NCBI GenBank assembly: GCA_008632985.1
Contig: QPGO01000206.1
Location: 62,001 to 121,324, forward strand
Source: Psammoneis japonica
Taxonomy: Eukaryota
Reading direction: 5' to 3'
DNA: 59,324 nt
The position numbers were made by a program, and so were the translations under genes. The notes under the pieces are model-generated. The model was not told the DNA's origin. It searched no databases and saw nothing but the letters and a program-made list of their open reading frames with translations. Below are positions 4,985 through 49,800 of this stretch, piece after piece; position 1 is the first letter of the stretch; every line of letters starts with the position of its first letter.

Positions 4985-5527
4985 CTACGTCGATGCCCCG
5001 AGAGCTTCCGTCAGGGATTCAAAACCGTGTTCTAACGAGTTTTCTGCGTTCTGACGAAGCGAGCCTTCTTTGAAGCATCGAAGGCAGACAGGGTAACGAG
5101 ACCTAGCTTCATGGTAGTCCAAGACGACCCGAAAAGCATTTGCATAAGCTTGAACCGCCACGCGACGAATTGCATCACTTGTATCCGTTGCTTCCGATAT
5201 CTTCAACTTGACAACGCGGGATGCTTTGTAGGCAGCAGATGCTCTGTCAGCTGGATGGGAATGAGGGACGCCGAAACAAGCATCAATGACGTTTCCATCG
5301 GTCAAGGCGACAAACGACACGGTCAGTGCATCGTCACTTATGTCAAACTCAGATGTAGACTGCGTCTTCTTGCGCAGCCCCGCTGCGCCACCTGTAAGTA
5401 GAATAAGATATCCCTGCGCAACTTCGGGTCTTATTTCCAAAACCTCGTCTGTGTCATACAGCACGAAAGGTAGAGAATTCGCCTGCGTCGTCGTGGCGAG
5501 TGGGCGTTTGCTTGCGGTTATACCCAT
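4985..5527 (-). CDS. Hypothetical protein, possible N-myristoylation
   Basis: 180-aa ATG ORF with protein-like composition; N-terminus MGITASK fits MGxxxS. Confidence 0.6.
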   Translation of the reverse strand: MGITASKRPLATTTQANSLPFVLYDTDEVLEIRPEVAQGYLILLTGGAAGLRKKTQSTSEFDISDDALTVSFVALTDGNVIDACFGVPHSHPADRASAAYKASRVVKLKISEATDTSDAIRRVAVQAYANAFRVVLDYHEARSRYPVCLRCFKEGSLRQNAENSLEHGFESLTEALGAST

Positions 5528-5888
5528 GCTTCCTTGTGATTATTCCTAGAAGAGCAGATCTTGTCCAAGTCGCCTGATATAACACTCGTGTCCTCTTTGA
5601 TCTTGGGTCGTGACAGGCAGTGAAGAGGAGCCAGAGCCTCTTCCGTTCCAGTGAGAAAAGAGCGATATCGCGGTAGCGATGATGCCGCGATTGAATTCTT
5701 CCCTTGTCGTGAGATTCGAAATTTTGGCGAATGCTGGCGTGAAATTTACTTATTTAGACTTTAATACCTAAAAACAAAATAATTACAACGATAAAGAAAT
5801 TGTTTATCTCTACGTCCGAGGAGTATATAAAATCGCACCCAAGTTCGGGGGGAATGGGGCCATACCGGTAATCAAGGTTGCGTTGATA

Positions 5889-6183
5889 CTACGAATTGCA
5901 AGACAATTGCGCGATTCACGTGCCCGAAGGGTGATTGTTGAAATTCGAGCTTCGCGCACGTAGAGCCTGTAGAAAATGTACCAGCCAGCCCGAAGCTCCG
6001 ATTTTCGTAGATCACGTAGGAGAGTACCACAAGGTCATTTGATGAAATGACTGGGACCAAAATGAAAATTTTGATACCACATCATACGTAGAATTGACAT
6101 CTGCGCGAAGGGAGAATGTTGCTTCGGGCAACGATATTCCACCTTCGAGCACGTGAATCGCGCAATTGTCTTGCAATTTGTAG
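5889..6183. mobile_element. MITE, Tc1/mariner-like
   Basis: ~43-bp terminal inverted repeats (CTACGAATTGCAAGACAATTGCGCGATTCACGTGCCCGAAGG ... CCTTCGAGCACGTGAATCGCGCAATTGTCTTGCAATTTGTAG), flanked by TA at 5887-5888 and 6184-6185; no coding capacity. Confidence 0.8.
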
Positions 6184-6260
6184 TAATGCAAAGTGAGTCG
6201 AATGGAATTCATGACTACCGTATTTTTTTATTGCAATAGAAGCAAGTCTTGAGCCTCAGA

Positions 6261-8170: not shown

Positions 8171-9207
8171 CAATCCCAGAATCTGAATGCAGAAATCGTT
8201 GAACACAAGGCAAGCCTTGATTTGGTCATCACAATGTTTGCAGTTGCACCTTGCTCTTCTCAAACAGGGAGTTGTTGTCCACTGTTTGGTTAAATGCCAT
8301 TCCACCAGACTTGCCGCATTCTCAGGAGGTGCCATGCTCTTCCACCAGGTCAGCCAGCTCCACTTGGCCAGACTTGTCCTCTCCAGCCAGCTGACTCTCT
8401 GGCTGCTTGTTTTGCAGGTGGGGGCTGAGACAATGAAAGTGTGTGGCTGACAGACAGTTCCTGCATGTGTCTGATGCCATCGAGACTCACCGAGGTTGCG
8501 ATGTGGCTGCCCATTGGCAAAAAATGCCGGCTGATGCACGACAAGCCAACAGCACGCTGATGATGCCAGCGACTTTTGCCAGTGGCAAGCACAGTCATTG
8601 CATCTTGATTAAAACATGTGCTTTGTCTGTGTTCAGGTGGCCAGTCTGCTTGTGGCCAGAGCTCTCTGCAAGATTGCTTTGAGGCCAAAGCTCTTGCAGA
8701 AAAGGCAGGCGCTGCTCTTGAGCTGCGATCCAGAGTGGGTGTCCGCACAAGATCTTGCCAACATCATGCAATCACTTGAGACTGATGAATTGATCTCTCT
8801 TTCTTTGATGAGTGTGCAGAGGATCTTTTTGCACACTCAGCACTCTGAAGGATTTGCAGAAAGGGCCCTCTTTTCTTGCTTTTTTTGAGAAAATCTTTTG
8901 ACTCAAGTGTCTCACACAGTGTGACCATTGGTTCAGAAAAAATGCACATCACAAATCTTTGTCAAGGATCATGGATCATTAAATCTGACAGATGAAAGCA
9001 TTGTGCCAGTTCCAACTGAGGAGTTTGGCACAATGTGATGAGTGGGAAAATGCCCTTGGCACAAGGCGGCAGGCGCAGAGAAGCTTTTCTTCTTGAGCCT
9101 TCTTTCTTGTCTCATCAAGAACACAACACTGCCAGCAGGCATTTGAAGGGCACCAACAGGTCATTTACTTCTGGCTGCTTCCATGTGCCAGCCCCTGGAG
9201 AGATGCT
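8171..9207. other. TpA-depleted degenerate island (TE or gene relic, unclassified)
   Basis: 4 TpA in ~1040 bp (3 are TTAA); overlapping Tyr-free, C/H/W-rich ORFs on both strands. Confidence 0.6.
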
Positions 9208-26395: not shown

Positions 26396-26964
26396 AGGGT
26401 TGAAGCGCCAAAATACAGCCATGCGACTAGGCTTTCATTCTTTACCGTAGCCTTGTTGTTCTGTAGCTTGAAAAAGACTTGAGCGCAACAAGAACGCGTC
26501 CATTTTGCCCTTGGTCGTTCTGTCTTTGTATGGAGATTGTAGACGAGCAAGCTTCATCATTGGATCCACATTCTATGTATGAAACTCACCAGAGTGTCAT
26601 TTTACCTTCATACTTTTTGCAGTGGCGACGGGAGGAGGAGCCAGCTAGTTCGTGGTCAGTCAACGAGATTCGAGAAGGTGTGATGTCATCGATGCATTAG
26701 AAGTTTCTGCCAGTGAATTGATCACATTGAAATCATTTCCGCTGTCGAAGACCGTCCATTGAGCTCGAGCTGAAGCTTGATGCGATCTAGTTCAAGAAGT
26801 AATCTCCTCTCAGTTGTGCGACCATTGCGGTCCCACACACTAGTAAAACTATTTGAACTCTGATGCCCCATCCGGGCGTGTTGTAGAGGGAGGTTTCTCA
26901 AGCAACTGCCCCCGGCCTCGGCCCGCAGCAGTCCGCAGTCTCCAGCGACATGCCAGAGAACTGA

Positions 26965-27568
26965 AACCCACCATGGCGTTACCGACACCGACGCCTTCTC
27001 TCCACCATGGTGGAGGCGCCATCCCTTCGGGTCTAACCGCTCAGAATCTCTAATTGGATCCTGCGATCCGAGATTGGGTCGTGCTACCTCTGCTCGTCAT
27101 TGTGATTGCTGCTGTTTGTTGCGTCATAAAATCTCGGTATGCTCCTCCGTACCAAAGCCAAGAAGCAGAATTATATTGAAGGTCGGGCCAAGAACTCCTT
27201 GGCACATGCCTCCAGACTCCGTGGTGGCTCGAGCAACTTCAATTTCTTCCTCCAAGTGGGAGGCGCGGCGTCGCTTTCAGACTGCCAAAGTCAACTCCAG
27301 CAACGATGCGGGCGTGCGGTTGATACAGGATATCGTGTGGGTGCAAGAAGAAACCGAGAGCTCTGCAGCGGGCGGAGGAGGTTCTGGAGCTGATTTGTTT
27401 TCTGGGCAAGCATTACTGCACCCTGAACCCAAAGAAGAAGCTTGCAGCTAGGGCCCTGGATGATTTCTTTGGGCAGATGTAGACTGCTATGAGGAATACA
27501 TAAATTATTGTAAGAAGGAAAAGGCGAACCAGAAGTCTATTCTGAAATCTATCTGGGTTTAATCAAAC
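26965..27568 (+). pseudogene. Internally deleted duplicate of the EMC3 gene at 30902
   Basis: Near-identical 5' coding sequence from AAACCCACCATGGCG, with frameshifts and a jump from GCTGATTTG to TTCTGGGCAAG (loss of ~430 bp); includes the matching 3' flank (TCTATCTGGGTTT..ATCAAACT). Confidence 0.9.
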
Positions 27569-27662
27569 TCTCTCTGCTCTCTACTCTCTAGTAGCTAGAG
27601 AGAGCAGAGGGCTCGACTACTAACTCTACTCTAGAGAGTAGCCCAATTGTTTCCATCGGTTC

Positions 27663-27728
27663 GTGTGTCGCCCGAAACTCCCTCCGACAAGGTCTGTGTG
27701 TCGCCCGAAACTCCCTCCGGCACGGTCC
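27663..27728. repeat. 2 x 33-bp tandem repeat
   Basis: GTGTGTCGCCCGAAACTCCCTCCG at 27663 and 27696. Confidence 0.85.
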
Positions 27729-27811
27729 GTCCCGCCCTGCCCTGGCCCTGCCGCCCACCATGAGCCCCACGACAAATCGCAAGGAGAGTTCAGCTTCAAG
27801 CTGTTGAAATA

Positions 27812-30590
27812 AAAATCACACTGGCACCAAGCTCAAAGCAGGCAAGCACTCATCAGTTGTGTGCATGCAATGGACAGAAAACCAATCAAGAGTCAATGAG
27901 TGTGCAAGCACCGCCCCAAATCCTGAGTGCCCCCCCCCGCGAAGAGGAATGGATCCTCCGCTCCACTGCCCCCAATGGCAATCGCAGTCCTGTTGGCTGA
28001 TCATTGCAATTGCATCCCAAATCCATTTTGAAAACACTCGGTGCCAATGACAGATCCCACCTCAGACCAATCTCTTTCTCATCAATCAAAGGCCACCGCC
28101 CCACCCAGCACACTGACCACAGCAATGCCAAGATGTTGACAGCAGCCGCAAAAGATGAAAAAGCCACAATCTTGCATTTTGACTCAATGACATCGTGCAT
28201 CCAAACATCACAGGTTCTTCATGGCCACTCTCCAGGCAGTGTGCCAGGCCTTGCTGATTCCAGGTTGACGAGGAATTTCCAAACGCACCCGCCGCTGCAG
28301 TGCGACCCGCGCAGTCCATGGCAACAGATCTGTCGAGTGTTTGAACACGCAGTTCAGTCATTGCATTTCCCATTTGACCCCCCTTGCTTGGACAAGGAAA
28401 ATTGCATCGGTGCACAAAAATGGCACCAATGCCTTGAACTTTGTTCGCAGCAGGGTCTTGCGATCAACTTCCGACAACTGCTCCAGAATCGCTCAAATGA
28501 ATGGCGGGGCCAGCAAACATGCGCTTGCTTTGCAACCGTCAAGTGCCTGGCCATGTTGCTTCTGTGATTTTGACTTTTGGTGGCATTCAAATGTTTCCAC
28601 ATGCCCGCCACATCCTTGGCCACGAACACATTTTCTGTGTGAAACTGCAAGCTTTTGAGTGCATCGTCCCGCGCGACAACAACGTGCTTTGTTCAATGAA
28701 AAGACCTTTTCCAGCTGCTCCCAACATGACATTGTGTCATTGCCAAATGCCAAAATGTTGCCCTTTCTGTTCAATGCTGTGCCGATCAGTTTTTAACTTG
28801 TTGCCGTGCCTGACAGTTGCTGAGCCAATTGCTCCCACGACTTGCATGCTGTGGCATTCTCAAGGGAACAGCCCACAAGCAGTCGATGCACCCAAACAAG
28901 GCCACCAGAACTGTTAAAAAAAAACAATCTTCATCTCTCTTCCACTTTCATGCCAAAGCTGCTTCTTTTCACCATCCAGCAAAGCTTTCAGAGTTGTCAA
29001 GACTTTGCTCTTGAAAAACATTCGCGGCACGTTGGAGAATTTTGCAAGACTGGCCTTGCAACTGCATTTGTTGCCTTGCACAATTCTGTCTGCCACCACT
29101 TTTCTTGTTTTCTTCACTGCAGACATGGGTGCTTTGCTTTTGACAAGGTCAATCAAAGTTTTGGTGGCCCAGTGAGAGAACTCCATGGTGACAAGAGACA
29201 ACTTCGGCAATGGATTCTGAGTTGGTTCTCAAAAACTGATTCACGGCTCTGGTTGCAAAAGACAGCGAGCCAACAATGTTGCACCACTTGGCTGCCCTGA
29301 TGGCCATGAGCACTTCATTTCAAGACTTGGACAAGTCTGTCTCTGAGTCAAATTGTTGAATGTCATGAATCCAACGCAGTCACCTCCGGAGCAGCTGGTT
29401 TTGATGCCGTGTGACAGCTGGGAGGAGAACAAAAAAGAAAACTCTGACTTTTCGTGATCTCTCCCGAAAGCAATTGTTGTGTGACAAATGTCTGGTGTGC
29501 AGCCACCAGAAAGGTCCCATTCTCCAAAATCTTGATTTTAAAGGCTCAAGCATGCCCAAACATTGCAAACATCATGGTCTTGACAGAACTTTGCATGATT
29601 TGAAAAAATTGGCGGGGTGAGATTCTTGTCAGATTTTCAACAAACAAATGAAGCGCAAACCATTTTCACTGCCAAAGATGCACAGGATCAACTGCAGCTC
29701 AGCAAAGGCTTTCTGCATGCCATGCTTCATTTTCCAACACCTTGATTGAAGGCCAAAGCTTCATCAAACATGCTGGCCATTGATGATTGTTGCGACGTTG
29801 GACGTGTCTCCAGTCCGCTCTCACCACTGTTGAAGGTCTCGGCTGAAAAATTGGAGCTGGGGGCAAACAATGCAGACATGTCTGTCACCAACAAGGTGTT
29901 CCAAGTTGAAACATGACTTCATTTGTCATTGGTGAGTGTCTCATTGGCGAAGCCAATGAGCGGCAGCAGAGTTCAGCGTGACGCATTCCAGCTCTGGGTG
30001 GGACCTCGCGCTGCTGCACTGTGACATCAACAGCTTTTTGGATCGCGTCACATGTCACACATGTGCATTTCTGCGTGCCACATTCTACAAAATTGTTTCA
30101 TGCTCCCTGTTTTGCGAAGCCAAAGGCTTTCCATTTTCAACATTTGCAAGAATGAAAATGCACTGGGCACACTCTTCAATGTCTGAAGAGTGCACCCGGG
30201 CAAACTGTCGATGATGCACTGCAAGCATGGAGGAGGAGATGCATTTGCAAATTGCCTCTTTTTCTGTTGGCAATCATTTGTGCTTTCATTGCAGCACAAA
30301 TTTGCTGTGGAGCTCGTGCGCAGAATTCTCTGCGGGCCCAATGTCACACGGAGCCCCACCTGGGGCTGGAGCCCGTCACGTGCAAGCATGTCTTTTCCGG
30401 GTTCATTTCCAGACTGCTGGGAATCGCTTCTCTGGATTTCCAGCACGACGCATTTTCCAGGTTTCCAGTGAGCCAAAGCTTCCGGGCTTCTTGGGAGACG
30501 CAGCCTCCGGGTTTCTGGGGAGACGCTGTTTCCGGGCTTTCAATGGGGCACAGCTTCTGGGTTTCCAGCACAGCCTCACTTCCAGGTTTT
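27812..30590. mobile_element. TpA-erased unclassified element between the EMC3 copies
   Basis: 4 TpA in ~2.8 kb; many Tyr-free ORFs; shares ~70 bp of homology with 36772-36841, so it is repetitive. Confidence 0.55.
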
Positions 30591-30832
30591 TAGTGGGACT
30601 TTGCTTCCGGGCATCCAGCGAGCCGTTGCTTCCTGGTTTCAGGGGTTCAGGGACACTTTGCTTCGGGTTTCTAGAGGGACTCATTCCGGGTTTCCGGTTT
30701 CCAATGCGGATTGCACTCCGGGTTTCCAGCGCCGATTCTTTTCCGGGTTTCTGACAAGAAATCCTTTCCGGGTTATTTCTGACAAGACGTCGATTCCGGG
30801 TTTCTACTTCTAGCGAGACTTCCGGGTTTCCA
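30396..30832. repeat. ~17-unit array, 25-bp period, core TCCGGGTTTC with variable linkers
   Basis: Cores at 30431, 30456, 30481, 30506, 30531, 30556, 30581, 30606, 30631 (exact 25-bp spacing), then 30662, 30685, 30717, 30742, 30767, 30795, 30821, plus 30396. Confidence 0.85.
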
Positions 30833-30901
30833 ACGCGACGCTGCACGCGGCGGCTGCAGGATGCGAGGACTGGTACTACTTTTATTCAAAGAAAACCCAC
30901 C

Positions 30902-31864
30902 ATGGCGTTACCGACACCGACGCCTTCTCTCGACCATGGTGGAGGCGCCATCCCTTCGGGTCTAACCGCTCAGAATCTCTTATTGGATCCTGCGATCCGA
31001 GATTGGGTCGTGCTACCTCTGCTCGTCATTATGATTGCTGCTGGTTTGTTGCGTCATTATCTCGGTATGCTTCTCCGTACCAAAGCGAAGAAGCAGAATT
31101 ACATTGAAGGTCGGGCCAAGAACTCCTTGGCACATGCCTCCAGACTCCGTGGTGGCTCGAGCAACTTTATTTCTTCCTCCAAGTGGGAGGCGCGGCGTCG
31201 CTTTCAGAGTGCCAAAGGCAGCTCCAGCAACGATACGGGCGGGCGGTTGAGACAGGAGATCGTGTGGGTGCAAGAAGAAACCGAGAGCTCTGCAGCGGGC
31301 GAAGGAGGTTCTGGGGCTGATTTGATGAATCCCGCATCCATGGTGGAGGGACTTCAGGGCAACATGGTGTTTATGGTGCAGAACATGATTATGATGCAGG
31401 GAATCTCGTACTTTTTCAAGGGGTATATTTTGGTTAAAGTGCCGTTCGCGCTGACGAATGGCTTCAAGGGAATGTTTCAACGCGGTCTTGACTTGAACAC
31501 TCTCGACACGTCATATGTATCCAGTGTTTCATGGTACTTCTTGGTCATGTTTGGCTTGCGTGCGTTCTTTCGCTTGGTTATTGGAGATCCGTCCCAAGAA
31601 ATGCAAGAGTCCGTCAAGATTCAGCAGGGCCTCGGAACGTTGACAAACGCACCGGGGGGGCCGCAACAGTTTGACGCTGAATCAGTCTTGAAGTCAGAAG
31701 CTGACAACTTGGAGCTCTTACCGCGGCACAAATCTAACTTGGATACGGTGGAAAAGCGTCTTCTGGGCAAGCGTTACCCAAAGAAGAAGCTTGCCGCTAG
31801 TGCGGGTCAGCATGATTTCTTTGGGCAGATATCCTCCAAGCAAGGTAAAAAGAAAAAGTCCTGA
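30902..31864 (+). CDS. EMC3: ER membrane protein complex subunit 3
   Basis: LLLDPAIRDWVVLP, FFKGYILVKVPFALTNGFKGMFQRG, YVSSVSWYFLVMFGLR; intact 320-aa ORF. Confidence 0.93.
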   Translation: MALPTPTPSLDHGGGAIPSGLTAQNLLLDPAIRDWVVLPLLVIMIAAGLLRHYLGMLLRTKAKKQNYIEGRAKNSLAHASRLRGGSSNFISSSKWEARRRFQSAKGSSSNDTGGRLRQEIVWVQEETESSAAGEGGSGADLMNPASMVEGLQGNMVFMVQNMIMMQGISYFFKGYILVKVPFALTNGFKGMFQRGLDLNTLDTSYVSSVSWYFLVMFGLRAFFRLVIGDPSQEMQESVKIQQGLGTLTNAPGGPQQFDAESVLKSEADNLELLPRHKSNLDTVEKRLLGKRYPKKKLAASAGQHDFFGQISSKQGKKKKS

Positions 31865-36166: not shown

Positions 36167-37399
36167 GACTGCAATGTTGGCGTCACAAGTTCACTCAAGA
36201 ATGCAGCTAAGGTGTCGTGTCAACATGAACTGATGTTGTCACACCACACGGAGCGATCGCTTGTACCTTATACAGTATCTTGCTTCCCGCTTTCATCACA
36301 TTGATTGATGTCTTGACTTCTTGACACGTGGTGCGGATTGGATTGTGTGAAAGATACTTCAACCCGATGACGTGCAGACTGCCTGTGTGCCTGCATGGCG
36401 GGCTGCCATGCATGAAAACATGACCCACTGCGTACGACGCGAAATGACCCACACTGACCGTGCGTTGGGTCACCTTTCTTCTGAGCCGTTGAACATTTTG
36501 AACGCGCTCATGCAAGACTAAGAGCCACGGCCGTTTGCTTGCCCCATTGCTCTCCTCATTCCTCCAAAGAGCAACCAAGAGCAACAGCCACAAGCGGGCA
36601 GTTTTGGTGCTCCCACCTCTGCCGCCCTCTGGCCCTGCCGCTCCAGCTTGGGTTTGGGAGCGAGGCCTGCACACCCGCCAGCAAAGTCGCTCCAGTCTGA
36701 CAGTGGAGCCATGGCATCTCTCTGGTTTAAATGTTCCCAAAATTTCATCAAACAAAGCGTCTGGGGTTTTTGCAAAACAGCGAGTCTGGAACAATTTTTT
36801 GGAAGATCACATGCAGAAATCCACGTGCAAAACATGTGACGGATGACAAAAAAAGATTGTGCTGCACATCAGCACCACAAGCTCCCACCTGGGGCTGGAG
36901 TGAATCTGTCATTTGCAGCCAGCAGCCACTTGACTCTTCCACTGCACTGACAAAGCATCCAAAATGTGTGCAAAGCAGCACACCTGCACAAAGCAGCATC
37001 AGCAAGAGCTCAGAGTGGCGCTGACAAAGTGCCAGAGTTGGTGACAACAGCCAAGCCCCCAGGGCCAGCAGCCCCCTGTTTAAAAGAGGAAAAGTGTGAG
37101 CAACAACAAGCAGGCAAGCCAGGGGAAGCAGGGAGAGAAAAAGGTTTGGGCAGGAAGAAGAAAAACAAAACGAGAGACAGAGAGAAGAGAGAGCAGCTCT
37201 CTCTGGGGCGGCACCTGGGAAAAGTGTGCGGCAGCAAGAGTGACAAGCTCAAAAGCTCCCTGCAAACCAGTGACAGCAGGTGACATGTGCGCCAGTGAGA
37301 AAGAGTGAGCAAAGATCTCAGAGAGATCATCTTGTCCATCTAAAAAGAGCCTGACCATCATCCACACACAATCTGCCCATGCACCCTGTGCAGCAGAGC

Positions 37400-38900
37400 A
37401 GGCTGACAACCTCCCCTGATCCAACATGTTGAGAAACCTGATGATGCAGATCACAAATCACAAAGAAAGGGAAAACAATCTCATGCAAAGGGATGCAAAA
37501 CAAACCGGATGACTCTGGTGGGAAGGAGTCGGACATCACAAAATCACAAAAGGCAGCTCAACAGATGCCAGCAACAACAAATCAGCAAAAGTGCCCCATC
37601 ATTTGATGGGCATGACGGACATGGAGTGTCAATCTGAGAGCCTTGGTGAGGCCATTGCTTGGATTGACAATGCCAGGGATGTGTCGTGTGACAATGTGGC
37701 CGGCATCCTTTTCCAGCCCTGAAGAGCAAGCCACTGGACATCAATGTGGCGAGAGCGCTCGGTCGGGGTGCAATTGTTGATGATCATGATGGCCAATTTG
37801 TCGTCAATGTGCAATGGATTGGTGAGTCCTGAGGGGGGAACTGAGCTCTTGAAGAACTGAGTGGAGACACAAAACCAACTTGGCAGTGGCGCCGGCAGCA
37901 TGGAATTCCGCCTCCATTGAGCTGGCGCAGTCACTGTCTGTCTGTGTCTTGCATTGACATGCAACAGCACCAGCCAAAACACAAGCATGCCCAGTGGTCA
38001 AGTGATGGTTGCATGTCCAGTGGTCAAGTGATGGTTGTGAAGGTCATTTCCACAAGCTGCACCCAAAAAAGCCTGCAGTTGAGACAGAGAATCCGGAGTC
38101 AGAAAAGGAGGCAATGAAGCACATCAGGAAAAAATCATTCAAAAGGGTGCGGCAGCAAGGTGTCATCCTTGGATGGCTTGTGACAATTGATGTCCCAGCA
38201 CTTTGCATGACAAGATGCTTGGCAACAACCCCCTTTAAAGCCTGGCAGTGAACAGGTGCTGGGTGTGACGCGAACTTGGAGAGTGTGGTGACAGCATGGC
38301 CAATGTTGAGGCGAGAAATGACACAGGCACACAGCAGCTCCCCAAGGAGAGTTCAATGTCCAAAACCCTGAGCTTCTGCCAAATCCTGACACTTGGGTGC
38401 ACCTTCCACAGGACCTGTGTCCAAGTGCAAGGTGCCAATTGGGAAAGAGAGTCAACGGGAACAGGGGCAACCATGAAATCTGAGTCAGATTCATCATCAG
38501 CAGGTTGCAACCAACCATGCAATCGCAGCACTTGGTCAATGCATCAATGACAAGCAGCTGACACTGAGTCATTGCACTGGCATGTGCCCACACCGTTGAA
38601 CACTGCACAGAGCCCAAACACTTTTAAGGAGACAGAATCCTCACCAGGTGGTTGCAGTGATGAGCCAATTGCATCGAAAGTCTTGAAAGCATGCGGGATC
38701 CCACAGGGCACACAATGGCAAAATCATCAACCTGGCGCAAAAGGAGGATCTGTTTGCCATCGCATGTGCCCAAGCAGGTGCACTTGTCATGGGCGGTGTT
38801 CCAAAAAAGCAACTTGAGATTCATCAAGATGGGGTTGAGATCTGCCTCTCACTTCTTCTCTGCTGGTGCTCGTGTTGTCACAGCCCCAGTGCTTGGGGAG
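37400..38900 (-). mobile_element. Ty1/copia (CoDi-like) pol relic: RT and RNase H, PPT and start of 3' LTR
   Basis: LLRQVDDFAI (RT), LLGELL..IGHAVTTLSKF, SSMEAEF and TERSRHIDVQW (RNase H); minus-strand purine tract AGGGGAGG followed by TGTCAG at 37408. Confidence 0.85.
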
Positions 38901-39499
38901 TCTTTCATGACATCATCCTCATTGCCCTTCGGTGTTCTGTCAGGTTGTGGCCTTGTGCTGTGCCACTGAACTCTGCACCATGCTTTCTGTTTCGATTCAT
39001 TTGTTTTGTGAGCTGATCAAGCAAGCCTCATCTTTGTTCCTGAAACAAATTTTTTTCTTGCTTTCCTGGCATTTTTCACGATCATAGAAACATGCCAGAT
39101 TTCTGTGTGTGCATGACCAGAAATGTTTTCACCAGGCAAAACCATGGTGTCTCCCAACCTTGCAAAGGCTGCTCCCACATTTGTTGCAGGGATCCACTGT
39201 GAATTCTGAGCACATGTGATGACACCACATCTCCACGCGTGCAGCTGCTTGACCCAAGAAGAACATTGTGGACTTGCTCCAAGACTGTCTTGTCACTCAA
39301 GCATTTCCACCTTGCATGATGGATCCTGCAGACATGCAATCCATCAAAGCGATTGTAGATCAAGGAAGCTCCATTTTACGTTGTGGACCCTGACAGGCCT
39401 CATGTGATTCATTTGACACCAGAAGCTCTGTCATCCACGATCAAGCTGAACCTTCAGAATCATGATCAGTCGTTGTTCATTGTCACATCCACGCAACAC

Positions 39500-40900
39500 A
39501 TTCATGCTGATCCTGATGTGATGTGGAATTGCAGGGGCTGGAAAGAGTTTTCTCTTGCTCCCTGCCAGCAGAAGACACTGTCTGCACCCTCGTCCTGACT
39601 GGCACAGGAGCTGCAACTGTTGGTGTGAATGATTTAGCAGCAGCCCTCAATGAGTTTGCATGGAGCCATGCTCCACCTTCAGCTGCTGCTGTCAAAACAT
39701 CAGGAGGTGCCACATCATCCATGACATCGAAGCACCTCTTCAACCCCATCACTCTGCCCATGGATGTGCGTGAATGCTGTGACCATGAGGAACACAGTGC
39801 AGTTGCTCTGAAGAGTTCACTCGTCTCTCATTGTGACCATGGATTCCATCATCACATTGATGCCTCAGACCATGTCATTCTCAATGATGGCATGCACTTT
39901 GTCATGAGCTCCACCCCCAATCAAAAGATGTTGTTTGGGGAACCACCAATGTGTCATGACAACTCTCCTGCTGGGATGCGGGCGTGGCATCAAAATTTCC
40001 AACGTCACTCTTTCGACTCTGGGGATGCTGCATCCATCCCATGTGGTGTTTCACCAAGGATCATGGTGGTGAGAAGGGCTTCATGATCGGAAATGTCAAA
40101 GACGATGACTCACTCTGATGCATGTGTGTTCATTGCAAAGAAGCCCAGAGTTCTCTCCACAAGATTCCATCCAAAGCAGATGTGTTTCCCAAGAACAGCA
40201 GGCATCATTGCATTGTCGCCTTGTGCTGTGGCAATGGACACAAGGCCCTCAAGCAGATTCCACACAAGAGTCATCCAGCATTTGACCATGAAGCAGCTGG
40301 ATCAGTGGATTTGCACCCTGCTCAAGGCAACCCATCATTGACGGACTGCCACATTGTTTTCAAAGATTTCCACAGTTGCGTGCTCACATCTTTGATGTGC
40401 ACTCCACGTTGAATGATCCACGAGAGATGACTGTCTTCATCAAGAACACCAAACACTCCAAGTTCTTGTCCCATGCCATGAGGGATGAACAGAAGTCCCT
40501 GGCTGTGCTCAAGAAATGCATCGACACTCAGATTGTTGAAACCCTGTCTGACTTCCTTCATCAACCTGACAGTCCTTTGGTCACCACCCATGCGAGCCCT
40601 CGCACCTCACACCATGAATGGGGCCAGAATCAGGGAGCAAGACCCTCAATGCACAGCTTTTGATGTCAATGCTTTGTCATCCTGGACGTGCCTCCTGTTG
40701 AGGATGATTCTGATGGGGCACCCAATGATGCAGATGATTCACTGGATGACACCTTTGACACCCTTTGTGACGAATTAGCTGGCATGGATGTGCCACCTGT
40801 GGATGAGGATCGCCTCCTCCATCATGCACACTCGGCTTCTGCACACAGAAAGAATGGCACGTTGGTTGCCAGTTGGACTCATCACATTGTGGAGGAGATC
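39500..40900 (+). mobile_element. Copia gag-like relic, opposite orientation to the pol fragment
   Basis: Fragments MRAWHQNFQRHS, IHPMWCFTKDHGGEKGF and GNGHKALKQI..SHPAF resemble diatom copia Gag; broken by frameshifts. Confidence 0.55.
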
Positions 40901-40958
40901 GGCTGCTGTCTGCTGTGTGTCCCGCTTGCATTCTCTGTCGCCCGTCTGTGTGTCTCAA

Positions 40959-41695
40959 CTGCAGAGCGGGTTTGAAAGCCACCGCAGTCGTCAAGGGCAG
41001 TGGAGCATCTTCCAAGGTCACGAAATCCTTTTGCGTTGCCTCAACTCTGGCGGAATCCATCGTGAATGCGACGGAAGTGCCCACTCTTGGGGTCATGGAT
41101 CCATTTTCTGACTTTTGTGGTTGGACAAACACGGTTTCTGTTGTTTGGGTGCACACCGGACAGTGGAGTGTGTTGGCCACACCAACAACAGGAGGGCGAA
41201 GGCACCAACTTTCACACTGTGGTAATTTCTCTGTCAGTCTGCCAGAGGAGGGCAGGGATTTCATGATGATTCACAATGGCACTGCCATGGAGATCAAAAA
41301 GCAACACAAGACATCTGCACCAAGGCATCCAGGGGCGAGAAACGGAAAGAGAAACACGAGACTGCTCCTGCGTCTTCCGAGAGTGCCAAAAAAATGAAGG
41401 AAGAAATCCAAGGAATCATCTGCCAAGCACCAAGGCACTTGCATCATCCCCGTCTCATTGCACCAAGATGAGCAGCCCCAAGAAGGACAAGAGCGGAAAG
41501 ACTCCCGTGTGCACGCCGAGATCGTTCCATCCCAATCTTCCGGCCATTTCCAAAGAGAGGATCAAGAAGGGAAAAAAGACAAAAGACACCAGAACAAACA
41601 AACATGCCCAAGACAGAAAGGCACATTGACATGGCACAGCAAACATTTCTGCACATTGTTTCATCAAAAGCTGTTGGATGATTGTCGGTTGCCAT
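40959..41695 (-). pseudogene. Host-like multi-pass membrane gene relic, TpA-erased
   Basis: MATDNHPTAFDETM..MCLSVLGMFVCSGVFCLFSLL..SLSALVLLGAAHLG..WQMIPWISSFIF..LVFLFPFLAPG; 2 TGA stops, one frameshift, no Tyr. Confidence 0.4.
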
Positions 41696-43581
41696 CGTGC
41701 ACTTCGTGGCAGGGCAGTGGGATTCTTTCTTCGCTCTTTCGAAAGCATCACACAAGCTAGAAATGCTGCTCTCTCTGCTGCAGCTCTCTAGAAAGTCTTT
41801 TGAGCTACAGTGCTGTAGGGTGTCACCAAGCACAACAAGTTAATCCTTCGGCGTGCTAGGCCCACAGCACCGGCAGCTGTGATGATGGACTCGCACTCTA
41901 TGCAATCCATCCATGCATCAGACACCCTGACACAAGCACACGCAGATTTATTTGATTCTTCATCCCGCTGCTTTGGTCCCAATCCAATTAGGCGTGGCAG
42001 GCGCGCTCCTGATGAGCGTACAGACTATCACCGCGGTGCTATCGCGGGGAATTTGATCAAATCTCGCACCGACGATGGTGATGATTGCGACGCTAAGAAA
42101 GTTATCTAAACCTTCGATTCTGCGAGAACGTATTTGGCATATAATCAATTAGCATCTGTTGGATAGGTATCTAAATACGTTCTTCACGATTTTGATTTTG
42201 TGGCGAGCTATTGATAAACATACCGATTCAGTCGTTCGTGACGCCATGTCACGTGCCGAGTCTTCATCAACCACTCATTCGCCGGATTTTCGACACCCGC
42301 TGAGAGTAAAAGCCGGCGGATATATAAAGGCAAGTAATATAGAATCGAAATGGTGTTGTCATTGTGCCAAAGTCTCACTACTTGTTGTCTCACTCAACTG
42401 TCATGCAGACGCAGCCAATTTTCACAGTGTCAATCGTCGTGTGAGCTCATCGACGAATCCAATGTCGTAGTCCCGTCGTCAAACCCGTTTTAGCAACGCC
42501 AATGACAAGAGGAATATTTTTCAAGACTTTAATAAAGCAACTGCAATGCGATCAGCCAGTGTTTTTGAGTGGGAGAGGGTGGGGCGTGGGGCGGATTTTG
42601 GAGTGAAAATGCAGAGTGAAGTTGGCGTACTGTTTAAAAGAAGCAGTCAAACAACGTTGAAAAAGTTACCTATTGATGATACTCTCCTATAGAAGAATAA
42701 AGTTAGGTAATGGAAGTGCCCCCTTGCTTGTATATTCGCTAGATTGTTGGCAGAGACGCAATTGTCAATTCTGAAAATGGAAAAGTGTGGCTTGTAAATG
42801 TGTTTTCATGGATTGCTTCGTCCATTTAAAGCATGAAATAGGTCAAATAGAGTTGTCACAACGTCAATAATGAATTTTAAAGAAGACTATTGCCATAAAA
42901 TGTGCTTTGTGTTGATGTCATCGGCTATCTGTATCTCTTTGTCGAGAAAGGGTTCATCGACCCCGAGTCACGTGTCTTGAATCCCGCATGACCCGCTCGA
43001 CTCGAAATTTTTTGAAGAACTAGCTAGACTTTGACCCCGGCTAGAGCCACAAAATACCCGAGGTATGAGCATTATCGGTCTCCTACTCTTTAAACTAATG
43101 TCTTGCGAGAATGTAACAGGTATGTATTGTTCATGGTGTTGGGTATTTGGAAATGGAACTAACTTTTCGCGGGGCGCCTTTATTGCACGTGAAAGTACGA
43201 GGGACGATTTTTGGTGATATCTCTATTACTAACCAAACCTAACACTTGCGACCCCAAAACTTGTCGGGAACTTCTTATTAGAATAATATTAGTCGGCTGG
43301 AGTTGCATTTTGGTAAAAAATGGGGGGTTTGTGATTACACGTGGAAGCATGACGTTGGGCCCCATAGCTGCTGATGCGGTAACGTTGAAAGTCTCCAAAA
43401 TCAAGTCTCCGACAACCGGCAACTGCTCCCAATGGCGTTGTCACTTTGTCACCATTGCTCTCTCGGTTTGCGTTCCGTCGCTCTTTAAAGGGCCTCCCAC
43501 GCTTTCTTTGAGTTATTTCAGCGTTTTTCGTTTTTTGGTTAACTAAAGTAGCGTCCTTCACGCTCACGCTCTTGTTGTAAC

Positions 43582-48296: not shown

Positions 48297-49800
48297 TCAC
48301 AATGTTGTCCATCTCAACCATGGCTGGAGTCATCCTGAAGGTCATTCTTGCTCTTTGTTTTTGGCAATGCAGAGCAAAGCTGAGAACTGCCGCTCAAAAA
48401 ATCAAGATGACAGAGTGCGGGTGAGATGGCCCTTTCTCATTCAAAATTTGGGCGCACGCCATGACTCTGTTGCGCAAGCTGTGAGCGTTCAAACAGCTTG
48501 CAACAGTCCTTGCTCTCATTGTTGTGGCACCAGTGGTGCACACCAAAAGAGCTCTCCACACATGTGACCATTGCGGGGTGCAACAAGGCAGAGCCAACCA
48601 CAATCAATTGTGGTGCCCAGTGCGCAGTGGAGAGCATCGCTTCTGATGCTTGTTTGGCATCTGCTGCATGTGGAGGTGAAGAGCTCCACCAGTCACATCC
48701 CAAGAGCTTTTGCAATGGATGCACAAGGTGTCCAGCTGCACTGACCAAGGCTGTTGCTGTTGCTTCAAGATGCAGACTCAGTTTGTGCCCCTCTGGGCAG
48801 TGTGATGACATCACCTTGTCTGTTGGTTGTTGTCACAAGAGAAAGAGCATGACATCGGCAACTCTTTGTCACCCCAGCCATCCAGCAGTTCCTCTCAGCC
48901 ATCTCTTCTTGTTTTGCACCATTGTTGTTGTTGACATGTTCACACTCAAACCAAATGGCTGTGCTGTTTGAAGAAATGCAGAGATGGCCACACAAGCAAT
49001 GCCAAGGTTAGAAAGAAATGTTGACATTTGTGTGGGGGTTAATTTCAAAAATTTGAGGGACTGTGCTGCATTGCTGCTTTGCAGTCGAATTGTCAACAGC
49101 TCGATTGTCCTCATAGCCCCTGTCTTCAATTTTGTCCTGGTCTGCAGCCTTGAGAGCAACTTGTTGTGATCTTCTTCATCAGGAATGTTGTTGTTGCTGC
49201 TGATGGTGGACTGCACACCACTTGGAAATTCTAGGTTGATGATGCCAGCATCGTCAACCCTGCCAAATGACAACCTGCTGCTTTTGGGTAACACAGCTCA
49301 TTTGCACATGTTGGTGCAATTTTGAGCCACTCAATGCTGGCAGCAGCAATGACAACAACAGCAGCAGCAGTGGCAACAACAGCACTCTCGGCATTTTGCA
49401 AGTGAACACCAACACACATGCACACACTCCATGCATGAAAACATGGTGCAGTTGACAAGCCACTCCAAACCAAACACAAACAAACAAAACCATTGAGAAT
49501 TTGACAGAAATGCTGTGGAGAACACACCCTTGTGATGCATGAGCATCCAGGACACCAACCAAATGCACTGCAGTTAACATTCGAGCAGTGGTGTGGGGCG
49601 CATCATGCTGGCACCACAGCAAAGTCGAGCGAGCAGCGACACCACAGAATCAAATTCGCATGTTGCATTGATGACAGCACATTTATGATTCAGTGCCCTC
49701 AAGCAAACATGACGTTTTTGTTTAACAATGCGATTTGTTCAAAAATGATTGGCGGCAAATCCAGGGCAAAGCTGTCAATGCGAATGACCTGGGTTCCAAA
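48297..49800. other. TpA-depleted island with host-gene-like remnants on the minus strand
   Basis: ~8 TpA in 1.5 kb; Tyr-free ORF fragments (e.g. MLSTAHWAPQLIVVGSALL). Confidence 0.55.

Follow-up and report, generated by a model that had tools for sequence, protein, structure and literature searches.

It is highly probable that transposon copies in the genome of Psammoneis japonica come, after insertion, to lie in chromosomal domains where A:T is changed to G:C at TpA, on the two strands independently and with no other change of comparable frequency, and that the flanking bases set the rate, such that YTAR sites are the last to be lost. The three TTAA that remain in an island at 8171-9207 of the analysed window are leftovers of this slow YTAR class, of which TTAA is the most visible member and not the only refractory site.

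The window, by which we mean the whole stretch of 59,324 nucleotides that was analysed, comprises bases 62001-121324 of its contig in a 91.4-Mb assembly. Ordinary genes (Hsp90, DEAD helicase, Sec23/24, PCI and DUF6824, the last being typical of diatoms) alternate in it with sharply edged islands in which TpA observed/expected (o/e) is 0-0.1 and CpA and TpG each rise to 1.5-2.1, with GC at ~0.5 throughout; the TA o/e of gene-bearing stretches is ~0.3-1.0. Four islands were set by an HMM (8171-9166, 27641-30774, 36278-41758 and 48297-49684), and there is a further end-piece at 1-485. The features are listed below, with a strand where one applies.

1-485: end of a TpA-depleted island crossing the window edge, CpG kept (a single TpA, at 158, before 486; in 1-500, TA o/e 0.07 and CG o/e 0.88).
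8171-9207: TpA- and CpG-depleted island (HMM: 3 TpA in 996 bases; TA o/e 0.06 in 8501-9000).
8290-8293: remaining TpA, TTAA, in island 8171-9207.
8609-8612: remaining TpA, TTAA, in island 8171-9207.
8979-8982: remaining TpA, TTAA, in island 8171-9207.
9165-9168: remaining TpA, TTAC, in island 8171-9207.
27641-30774: TpA-depleted island with a DUF285 remnant (Pfam E 5e-7) and a 400-base repeat also found elsewhere in the genome (blastn 85% to locus L100); 7 TpA in 3134 bases.
36278-41758, minus strand: TpA-depleted island of nested Copia-type LTR retrotransposon relics; 14 TpA in 5481 bases, 114 genome matches.
48297-49684: TpA- and CpG-depleted island; 6 TpA in 1388 bases.

One short-read contig, possibly from the same sample as the assembly, spans island 8171-9207 with one substitution and one 8-base gap; since it reproduces the island, the latter is not an assembly error. 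The CpG loss of this island extends to ~9290. It showed no Pfam match in six frames and no match in the fetched loci, and one of the six frames had no match among 1.84 billion proteins. Genome searches with its DNA and with one read-through frame gave the self-match and no second copy, although a single genome match is no proof of uniqueness. Island 48297-49684 matched neither Pfam nor any of the fetched loci. Pfam also gave no match for island 36278-41758, in whose translation we recognised by eye what we take to be Copia RT/RNase H-like motifs; His or Cys occupies expected Tyr positions there, and all 29 other loci fetched for this island have a TA o/e of 0.00-0.25.

The original prediction held TTAA to be the refractory context, from the observation that it contains three of the four TpA left in 8171-9207. 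This count is correct (TTAA at 8291, 8610 and 8980; the fourth TpA is TTAC at 9166). Three more TpA lie just beyond these edges (8169 TTAC, 9209 CTAA and 9263 GTAG), and wider edges bring TTAA to 3/7. Over the four HMM islands, 12 of the 34 survivors are TTAA, where the remainder of the window would predict 1.35. The figures previously given for all islands, 13/28 in TTAA and 23/28 with a 5′ T or a 3′ A, were slightly high but close: with trimmed edges we find 11/29 (1.1 expected from gene background, and 2.0 from the islands' CA/TG contexts, p=2e-6) and 21/29 (13.3 expected), respectively. The observed/expected values for NTAN show survival that is not proportional to background, as the prediction required.

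The same order is seen in larger samples. Among 665 survivors in 121,510 non-redundant island bases there were 101 TTAA (x2.1), with CTAA/TTAG at x1.8, CTAG at x1.6 and ATAT at x0.06 (2 survivors); these loci came from Copia searches and were de-duplicated, and the sample is not random. Older islands outside the window, likewise a non-random sample from Copia searches, contained 118 survivors, among them 29 TTAA (x3.7), with CTAA/TTAG at x2.3 and no RTAY (28 expected). The most enriched end-state survivor is TTAA. A first pooled NTAN count over raw loci, which put TTAA at just x1.0-1.7, counted related copies with common retained sites repeatedly and was replaced by the de-duplicated one.

In order to measure rates directly we used graded copies of Copia elements. 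A search with RVT_2 revealed a young family, family A (L123-L140), of ~6.58 kb with 347-base LTRs, whose copies range from untouched to saturated; each was compared against one real intact copy (reference G000:C37:567998-574573). All rates come from Copia families only, and replication covers eight families. Copies that are ~99.5% identical elsewhere range from 0 to 74% in TA conversion. In one copy (L080), 142 of 193 TA were changed (71 to TG and 71 to CA) compared with 10 of 2033 other A/T and 8 of 268 CpG. L136 was dropped as all of its 87 jointly changed sites are common with L139, and L139 and L140 were excluded from the hot/cold spectrum; the copies are otherwise independent, with a median direction agreement of 0.61 over 66 pairs.

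The LTRs provide the timing. Among 256 LTR site pairs from 19 copies, 105 showed a change, which affected a single LTR in 80, went in opposite directions in 7 and was the same in both LTRs in 18. Strand runs at p<0.05 were found in 1 of 16 copies tested. The differences between LTRs together with the absence of strand runs show that the changes arise in the chromosome after insertion and on both strands independently. These data bear on the idea that an ADAR- or APOBEC-like activity edits the RNA or cDNA of the element in the course of retrotransposition. Such editing would suit the stronger conversion toward the element's 5′ part, and U at -1 is a known preference of A-to-I RNA editing (PMC11156358; this and the other PMC papers are cited from extracts of their text). 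However, within a single copy both strands are changed about equally and strand runs are lacking, LTR partners disagree at 87 of the 105 changed pairs, and the sense-strand term in family A is 0.85 (0.72-0.99). One-strand editing with changes common to both LTRs is not what the copies contain, and we rejected this explanation as hardly credible.

The spectrum in hot zones is extremely narrow. At 1075 A after T there were 783 transitions and 0 transversions, whereas A after A changes ~130-fold more slowly than A after T (0.0055 vs 0.73). CpG decay is six times higher in hot zones (60/2852) than in cold ones (16/4771), whereas non-CpG C>T is flat (16/8936 hot vs 37/16774 cold). As non-CpG C>T is unchanged between the two, hot zones are not older; we infer that they are CpG-methylated. 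In Phaeodactylum, a model diatom, transposable elements are methylated by DNMT5a (PMC9998398). Its onset after insertion and its association with CpG decay suggest that the process acts in silent chromatin, as a counterpart of the genome defence RIP that works in the opposite direction.

In ascomycetes, RIP destroys repeats in the chromosome by targeted, dinucleotide-specific transitions and is tied to methylated chromatin. The process described here shares with RIP its chromosomal, dinucleotide-specific transitions on repeats. RIP, however, generates TpA through C>T transitions, chiefly at CpA, whereas the present process erases TpA, and non-CpG C>T is equal in hot and cold zones. With no excess of non-CpG C>T, we rejected RIP itself as the process. 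The extent may also differ, RIP acting over the duplicated length and conversion here often affecting the 5′ part of a copy only, though the whole copy is repeated.

The conversion domain usually begins in the 5′ part of the element and falls off toward its 3′ end (0.57 at 500-1000 and 0.04 at 5500-6000). Several 99% copies are nearly untouched and others are converted in the 5′ part only, although the whole copy is repeated. This polarity in family A suggests nucleation at a fixed place followed by spreading. In some family A copies the onset lies just inside an untouched 5′ LTR, and the CpG decay gradient is the same. In family G (L142-L161), most full-length copies retain a TA-rich stretch of ~500 bases at one end (34-44 TA), the rest being depleted. 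A 327-base element with terminal inverted repeats lies inside an intact Copia (L032:1078-1404); it has many copies at 93-98% identity and keeps nearly all of its TA (250 of 267 observations). Short repeats seem to escape conversion.

Copia copies that match RVT_2 at a TA o/e of 0.14-0.30 still have open frames of 500-2000 codons, because TA>TG/CA creates no stop codons. This is a warning for annotation: islands have normal GC and lose TAA/TAG stops, so that dead elements show long open frames. No TpA desert was seen in any of the 80 Copia loci from metagenomes (lowest 1-kb o/e 0.29), in a search that was biased to intact copies and so does not show absence.

The strand of the change at TTAB sites was proposed as a means of fixing the motif, and it does so without the need for a dose estimate. 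TTGB outnumbered TCAB at 154 vs 42 sites, with 34 ties among the 230 sites in 8 families (p=3e-16; 942 vs 466 events). By family, TTGB:TCAB was 54:14 in A, 35:9 in G, 19:0 in F, 14:3 in C and 23:6 in I; it was even in B (5:5) and H (4:4), and 0:1 in M. The process is sequence-selective, and by this test the disfavoured event is clearly A>G in TAA (equivalent to T>C in TTA) and not A>G in TTA. The idea that the target excludes TAA stands in so far as this event is disfavoured, but TAA is slowed ~four-fold and not excluded.

A local-dose fit for family A (2656 observations, 1487 changes) gave weights for A>G in T[A], relative to T=1, of 0.23 for A, 0.38 for G and 1.07 for C at +1, and of 0.37, 0.62 and 1.03 at +2. 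Upstream, A at -2 had a weight of 1.96, and A, G and C at -3 had 3.66, 2.83 and 1.69. The directional weights for the base 3′ of the changed A were C 1.64, T 1, G 0.59 and A 0.55 (650 sites, family I partly counted twice), a 3′ G being about as unfavourable as a 3′ A. Pooled duplex rates over 557 sites were 0.44 for CTAA/TTAG, 0.44 for CTAG and 0.57 (0.24-1.19) for TTAA, compared with 0.91 for the GTAA, GTAC and CTAC classes, 1.27 for ATAA, 1.57 for ATAC, 1.68 for ATAG and 3.59 for ATAT. TTAA was the slowest of the ten contexts in 15% of bootstraps, and in the per-site estimate it came first by a margin within error (0.35, 0.42, 0.51; two family I copies counted twice). The refractory class is therefore YTAR (TTAA, CTAA/TTAG and CTAG), equally slow, and the claim that TTAA alone is refractory does not hold. 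An earlier fit with one dose per copy, from which three very diverged copies were excluded, had singled out TTAA as slow (0.40) and, from 3 sites, given CTAG a high rate; conversion varies along the copy, and this fit was replaced by the local-dose fits.

Taken as hexamers, YY-TA-RR has a rate of 0.29 and RR-TA-YY one of 3.03, a difference of ~10-fold (two family I copies counted twice), and the best motif on the strand of the changing A is about R-A-T-[A]-Y-Y. The ±1 and ±2 flanks explain 23% of the variance between sites (again with two family I copies counted twice). Terms for hairpins (p 0.4-0.7), A-tracts, local GC and nearby CpG were not significant in the site-rate fit. The rule also has an echo outside TpA, where rare non-TA A>G is raised in hot zones (after C, 18/3448 hot vs 5/6274 cold). 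Of these non-TA changes, 34 of 39 in hot zones have a 3′ pyrimidine (p=8e-8) vs 10 of 22 in cold zones, which is an independent echo of the +1 rule. Candidate enzymes can be tested against this strand-resolved motif: they should show a ~10-fold higher rate on RR-TA-YY than on YY-TA-RR, a preference for C or T on the 3′ side of the A that changes, and a slight leak at A-Y outside TA.

Survivor enrichment runs inversely to the measured rates, with a Spearman coefficient of -0.89 for the islands of the window, from which no rates had been taken, and one of -0.88 for old islands. The survivor pattern could in principle come from composition or regeneration, with islands rich in T/A runs, new TA from TCAA/TTGA, or selection keeping TA. 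Island contexts do halve the TTAA enrichment in the window (from x10 to x5.4), and some new TA arises in older copies. Yet the intact copy already has 229 of the TA that survive in hot zones and lacks 36 (35 vs 3 for TTAA), the rates measured from intact copies have the same order, and the TA of Tyr codons (codon position 1) is unprotected, survival being 0.12, 0.13 and 0.23 by codon position. We consider such an artefact very improbable.

The base at +2 behaves differently from that at +1. An A at +2 has no unfavourable effect on direction (1.20, 0.96-1.51), yet in families A and G it brings the total rate down to 0.39-0.47. The slowing is equal on both strands, and we take this as a sign that the site is chosen on duplex DNA. 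The original prediction read the preference as enzyme-like; the sequence selectivity is borne out, but the enzyme is a further step of interpretation; the flank effect is partly strand-symmetric, and this part could stem from DNA shape or chromatin access.

One explanation of this kind is that the mutator reads TA alone and that the flank rule arises from nucleosome or DNA-shape shielding, YY-TA-RR facing the histone surface. Such an orientation of YY-TA-RR steps is a rule of nucleosome positioning, YY-TA-RR is the slowest class here, and the ±2 effect is strand-symmetric. A weak 10.75-base period was found in the pooled site residuals (p=0.019 over all periods within 40 bases, family I copies counted twice), but family A on its own does not show it (p=0.25 at 10.25), it weakens at 80 bases (p=0.23), and a WW/SS phasing score had no effect (r 0.02-0.05). 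Shielding also leaves the directional +1 effect and the 3′ pyrimidine of non-TA changes unexplained. As the sole source of the rule it appears improbable, although it may act alongside the preferred reading, a TpA-directed deaminase, and add to the symmetric term.

We lean slightly towards deaminase chemistry at TpA. In the model that we propose, a transposon inserts and part of the element enters a domain, presumably of CpG-methylated silent chromatin, where TA becomes TG by change of one strand and CA by change of the other. The lesion would be deamination of adenine to hypoxanthine by an enzyme of TadA/ADAT fold recruited to silent chromatin, and replication would then turn hypoxanthine into a permanent G. 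That part of the flank effect which is equal on both strands suggests that the site would be selected on duplex DNA through the shape or opening of the TA step, after which the +1 base would determine which A of the TA is converted. More speculatively, and with considerable doubt, the agent may be a natural adenine deaminase of double-stranded chromosomal DNA that is guided to CpG-methylated transposons, nucleates near their 5′ end, spreads and reads RR-TA-YY; this would be an A-to-G counterpart of RIP common to distantly related SAR algae, and might serve as a native A-to-G editor of duplex DNA.

TadA-type enzymes need a single-stranded substrate, which fits poorly with the symmetric flank term, and the engineered TadA editors act on single-stranded DNA. 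The lack of a hairpin term, the lack of strand runs and the symmetric ±2 effect point to a duplex DNA substrate, though one that may open transiently. T at -1 of the edited A, a feature of TadA/ADAT-type enzymes, is found here. Engineered TadA makes A>G changes genome-wide at TA sites (PMC13225742). Adenine base editors of this type (ABE8e off-target) produce A>G / T>C in genomic DNA with TA preferred, as here, but their preference is partial (66-89% for three variants; PMC13225742) compared with ~130-fold in our copies. We found no +1/+2 rule for TadA editors in the literature, and the extracts of PMC10661471, PMC10625715, PMC8525391 and PMC3979402 contained neither a +1 rule for TadA nor a context for Pol iota.

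Fungal mRNA editing by Tad2-Tad3(-Ame1) is a case in which an ADAT has been turned from tRNA towards another substrate, and both it and ADAR favour U/T at -1, as here (PMC11156358). The fungal system acts on RNA, on one strand, in hairpin loops and with A or G at +1 (PMC11156358), whereas the present process acts on DNA, on both strands, with no hairpin effect and with a pyrimidine at +1. This +1 preference, opposite to that of the Fusarium enzyme, the one ADAT2/3-based mRNA editor known (A or G at +1; PMC11156358), counts against a simple ADAT model.

Genes with an HxE-PCxxC motif are present in the genome. The nine deaminase matches include ADAT2-like and TadA-like genes, and there are two ADAR/ADAT1-type loci; these names are our assignments from motifs. 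No dedicated mutator enzyme was found among the nine matches and the two loci, which look like a housekeeping set. An open frame at L166:313-1785 (G000:C79, minus strand) combines a deaminase domain of the zinc type with a 2OG-Fe(II) oxygenase and probably belongs to nucleobase metabolism.

Since A>G and T>C on the complementary strand leave the same record, the attacked base cannot be read from the sequence. The T of TpA in silent chromatin might instead be modified, by O4-alkylation, oxidation to 5-formyluracil or amination, and then pair with G, the motif being R-R-[T]-A. The sequence record would be identical to that of A>G, including the pure transitions (783 to 0), and co-location with CpG decay suits a methylation-linked enzyme. 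O4-alkyl, 5-formyluracil and aminated thymine do mis-code in this manner. We know of no enzyme that modifies T at TpA, however. The genome gave no Tet/JBP match, which carries no weight because the search detected no control either. TadA-type enzymes, by contrast, give TA-biased A>G in genomes (PMC13225742), and we regard thymine-directed chemistry as rather unlikely.

A two-step route would start in silent chromatin with a nick or a base excision specific to TA, followed by gap filling with Pol iota, which inserts G opposite template T. The genome has a Pol iota-like gene (L255; G000:C22:252628-253293, minus strand) whose best PDB match is human Pol iota (E 5e-23 vs 3e-12 for kappa), and a first step on duplex DNA would account for the symmetric flank term. 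Pol iota favours G opposite T (PMC8595933, PMC2194173, PMC3031609), placing dG opposite dT at 3-10 times the frequency of dA, and POLI occurs in some diatoms (PMC8595933). Against this, a fungal Pol iota also puts dT opposite dT more often than dA (PMC8595933), yet the A>T transversions that this T:T misinsertion would leave number 0 beside 783 transitions. The ~130-fold slower change of A after A than of A after T excludes a simple WA-type Pol eta process, and a TA-specific first step would still be required. We judge this route to be improbable. Rev1, Pol kappa and two Pol eta-like genes are also present in the genome, and just upstream of the Pol iota-like gene (~L255:2500-3550) lies a Cys/His-rich stretch that resembles another converted island.

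Hypermutation directed at TpA has so far been described in one preprint on one alga, for which neither an enzyme nor a motif longer than the dinucleotide is given: in Bigelowiella natans, it affects NCLDV and virophage DNA integrated in the genome (Mettrop et al., bioRxiv 10.64898/2026.01.13.699255, 2026 preprint, cited from part of its text). The process in Psammoneis works like it, the spectrum, two-strandedness and targets being matched. Both have TA>TG and TA>CA transitions only, on both strands, in selfish or foreign DNA and with clusters that are TpA-poor and CpA/TpG-rich. The almost exclusive A:T>G:C at TpA in B. natans is mirrored by our 783 transitions and 0 transversions, and TA>TG and TA>CA likewise occur here in one region. 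As in B. natans, change is confined to foreign or selfish DNA and genes are spared, the evidence here being converted Copia copies, with the origin of island 8171-9207 itself unassigned. An A-deaminase has been proposed for B. natans too (bioRxiv 10.64898/2026.01.13.699255).

The two cases differ in that B. natans is of a different SAR lineage and the targets shown here are LTR retrotransposons. Saturation reaches a TA o/e of <0.1 here vs 0.45 in the B. natans NCLDV region. The B. natans rate, ongoing at ~1000 times background in a subset of lines (bioRxiv 10.64898/2026.01.13.699255), comes from mutation-accumulation lines, whereas ours is inferred from copies. In the main text of the preprint, as covered here, a flanking rule and a CpG link are absent ('context', 'flanking' and 'CpG' occur 0 times); the supplements with the mutation list may bear on this. 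The present analysis measured the rate and direction of change by comparing intact and changed copies, its timing from the LTRs, the strand-symmetric flank term and the echo outside TpA. The same motif, if found among the B. natans mutations, would argue for one system across SAR. We found no report of such a process in diatoms in the literature covered, most subscription journals lying outside the search.

Some further features of the window were noted. An EMC3/TMCO1-like gene has a partial duplicate (95%) on the opposite side of island 27641-30774 (26964-27397 and 30893-31324), and the differences between the two are not TA-dominated. At the right edge of the same island lies a degenerate 25-base tandem repeat (30431-30851). 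A 44-base inverted repeat at 5887-6185, 95% complementary and with a spacing of 211 bases, is not TA-depleted and is possibly a small non-autonomous element.
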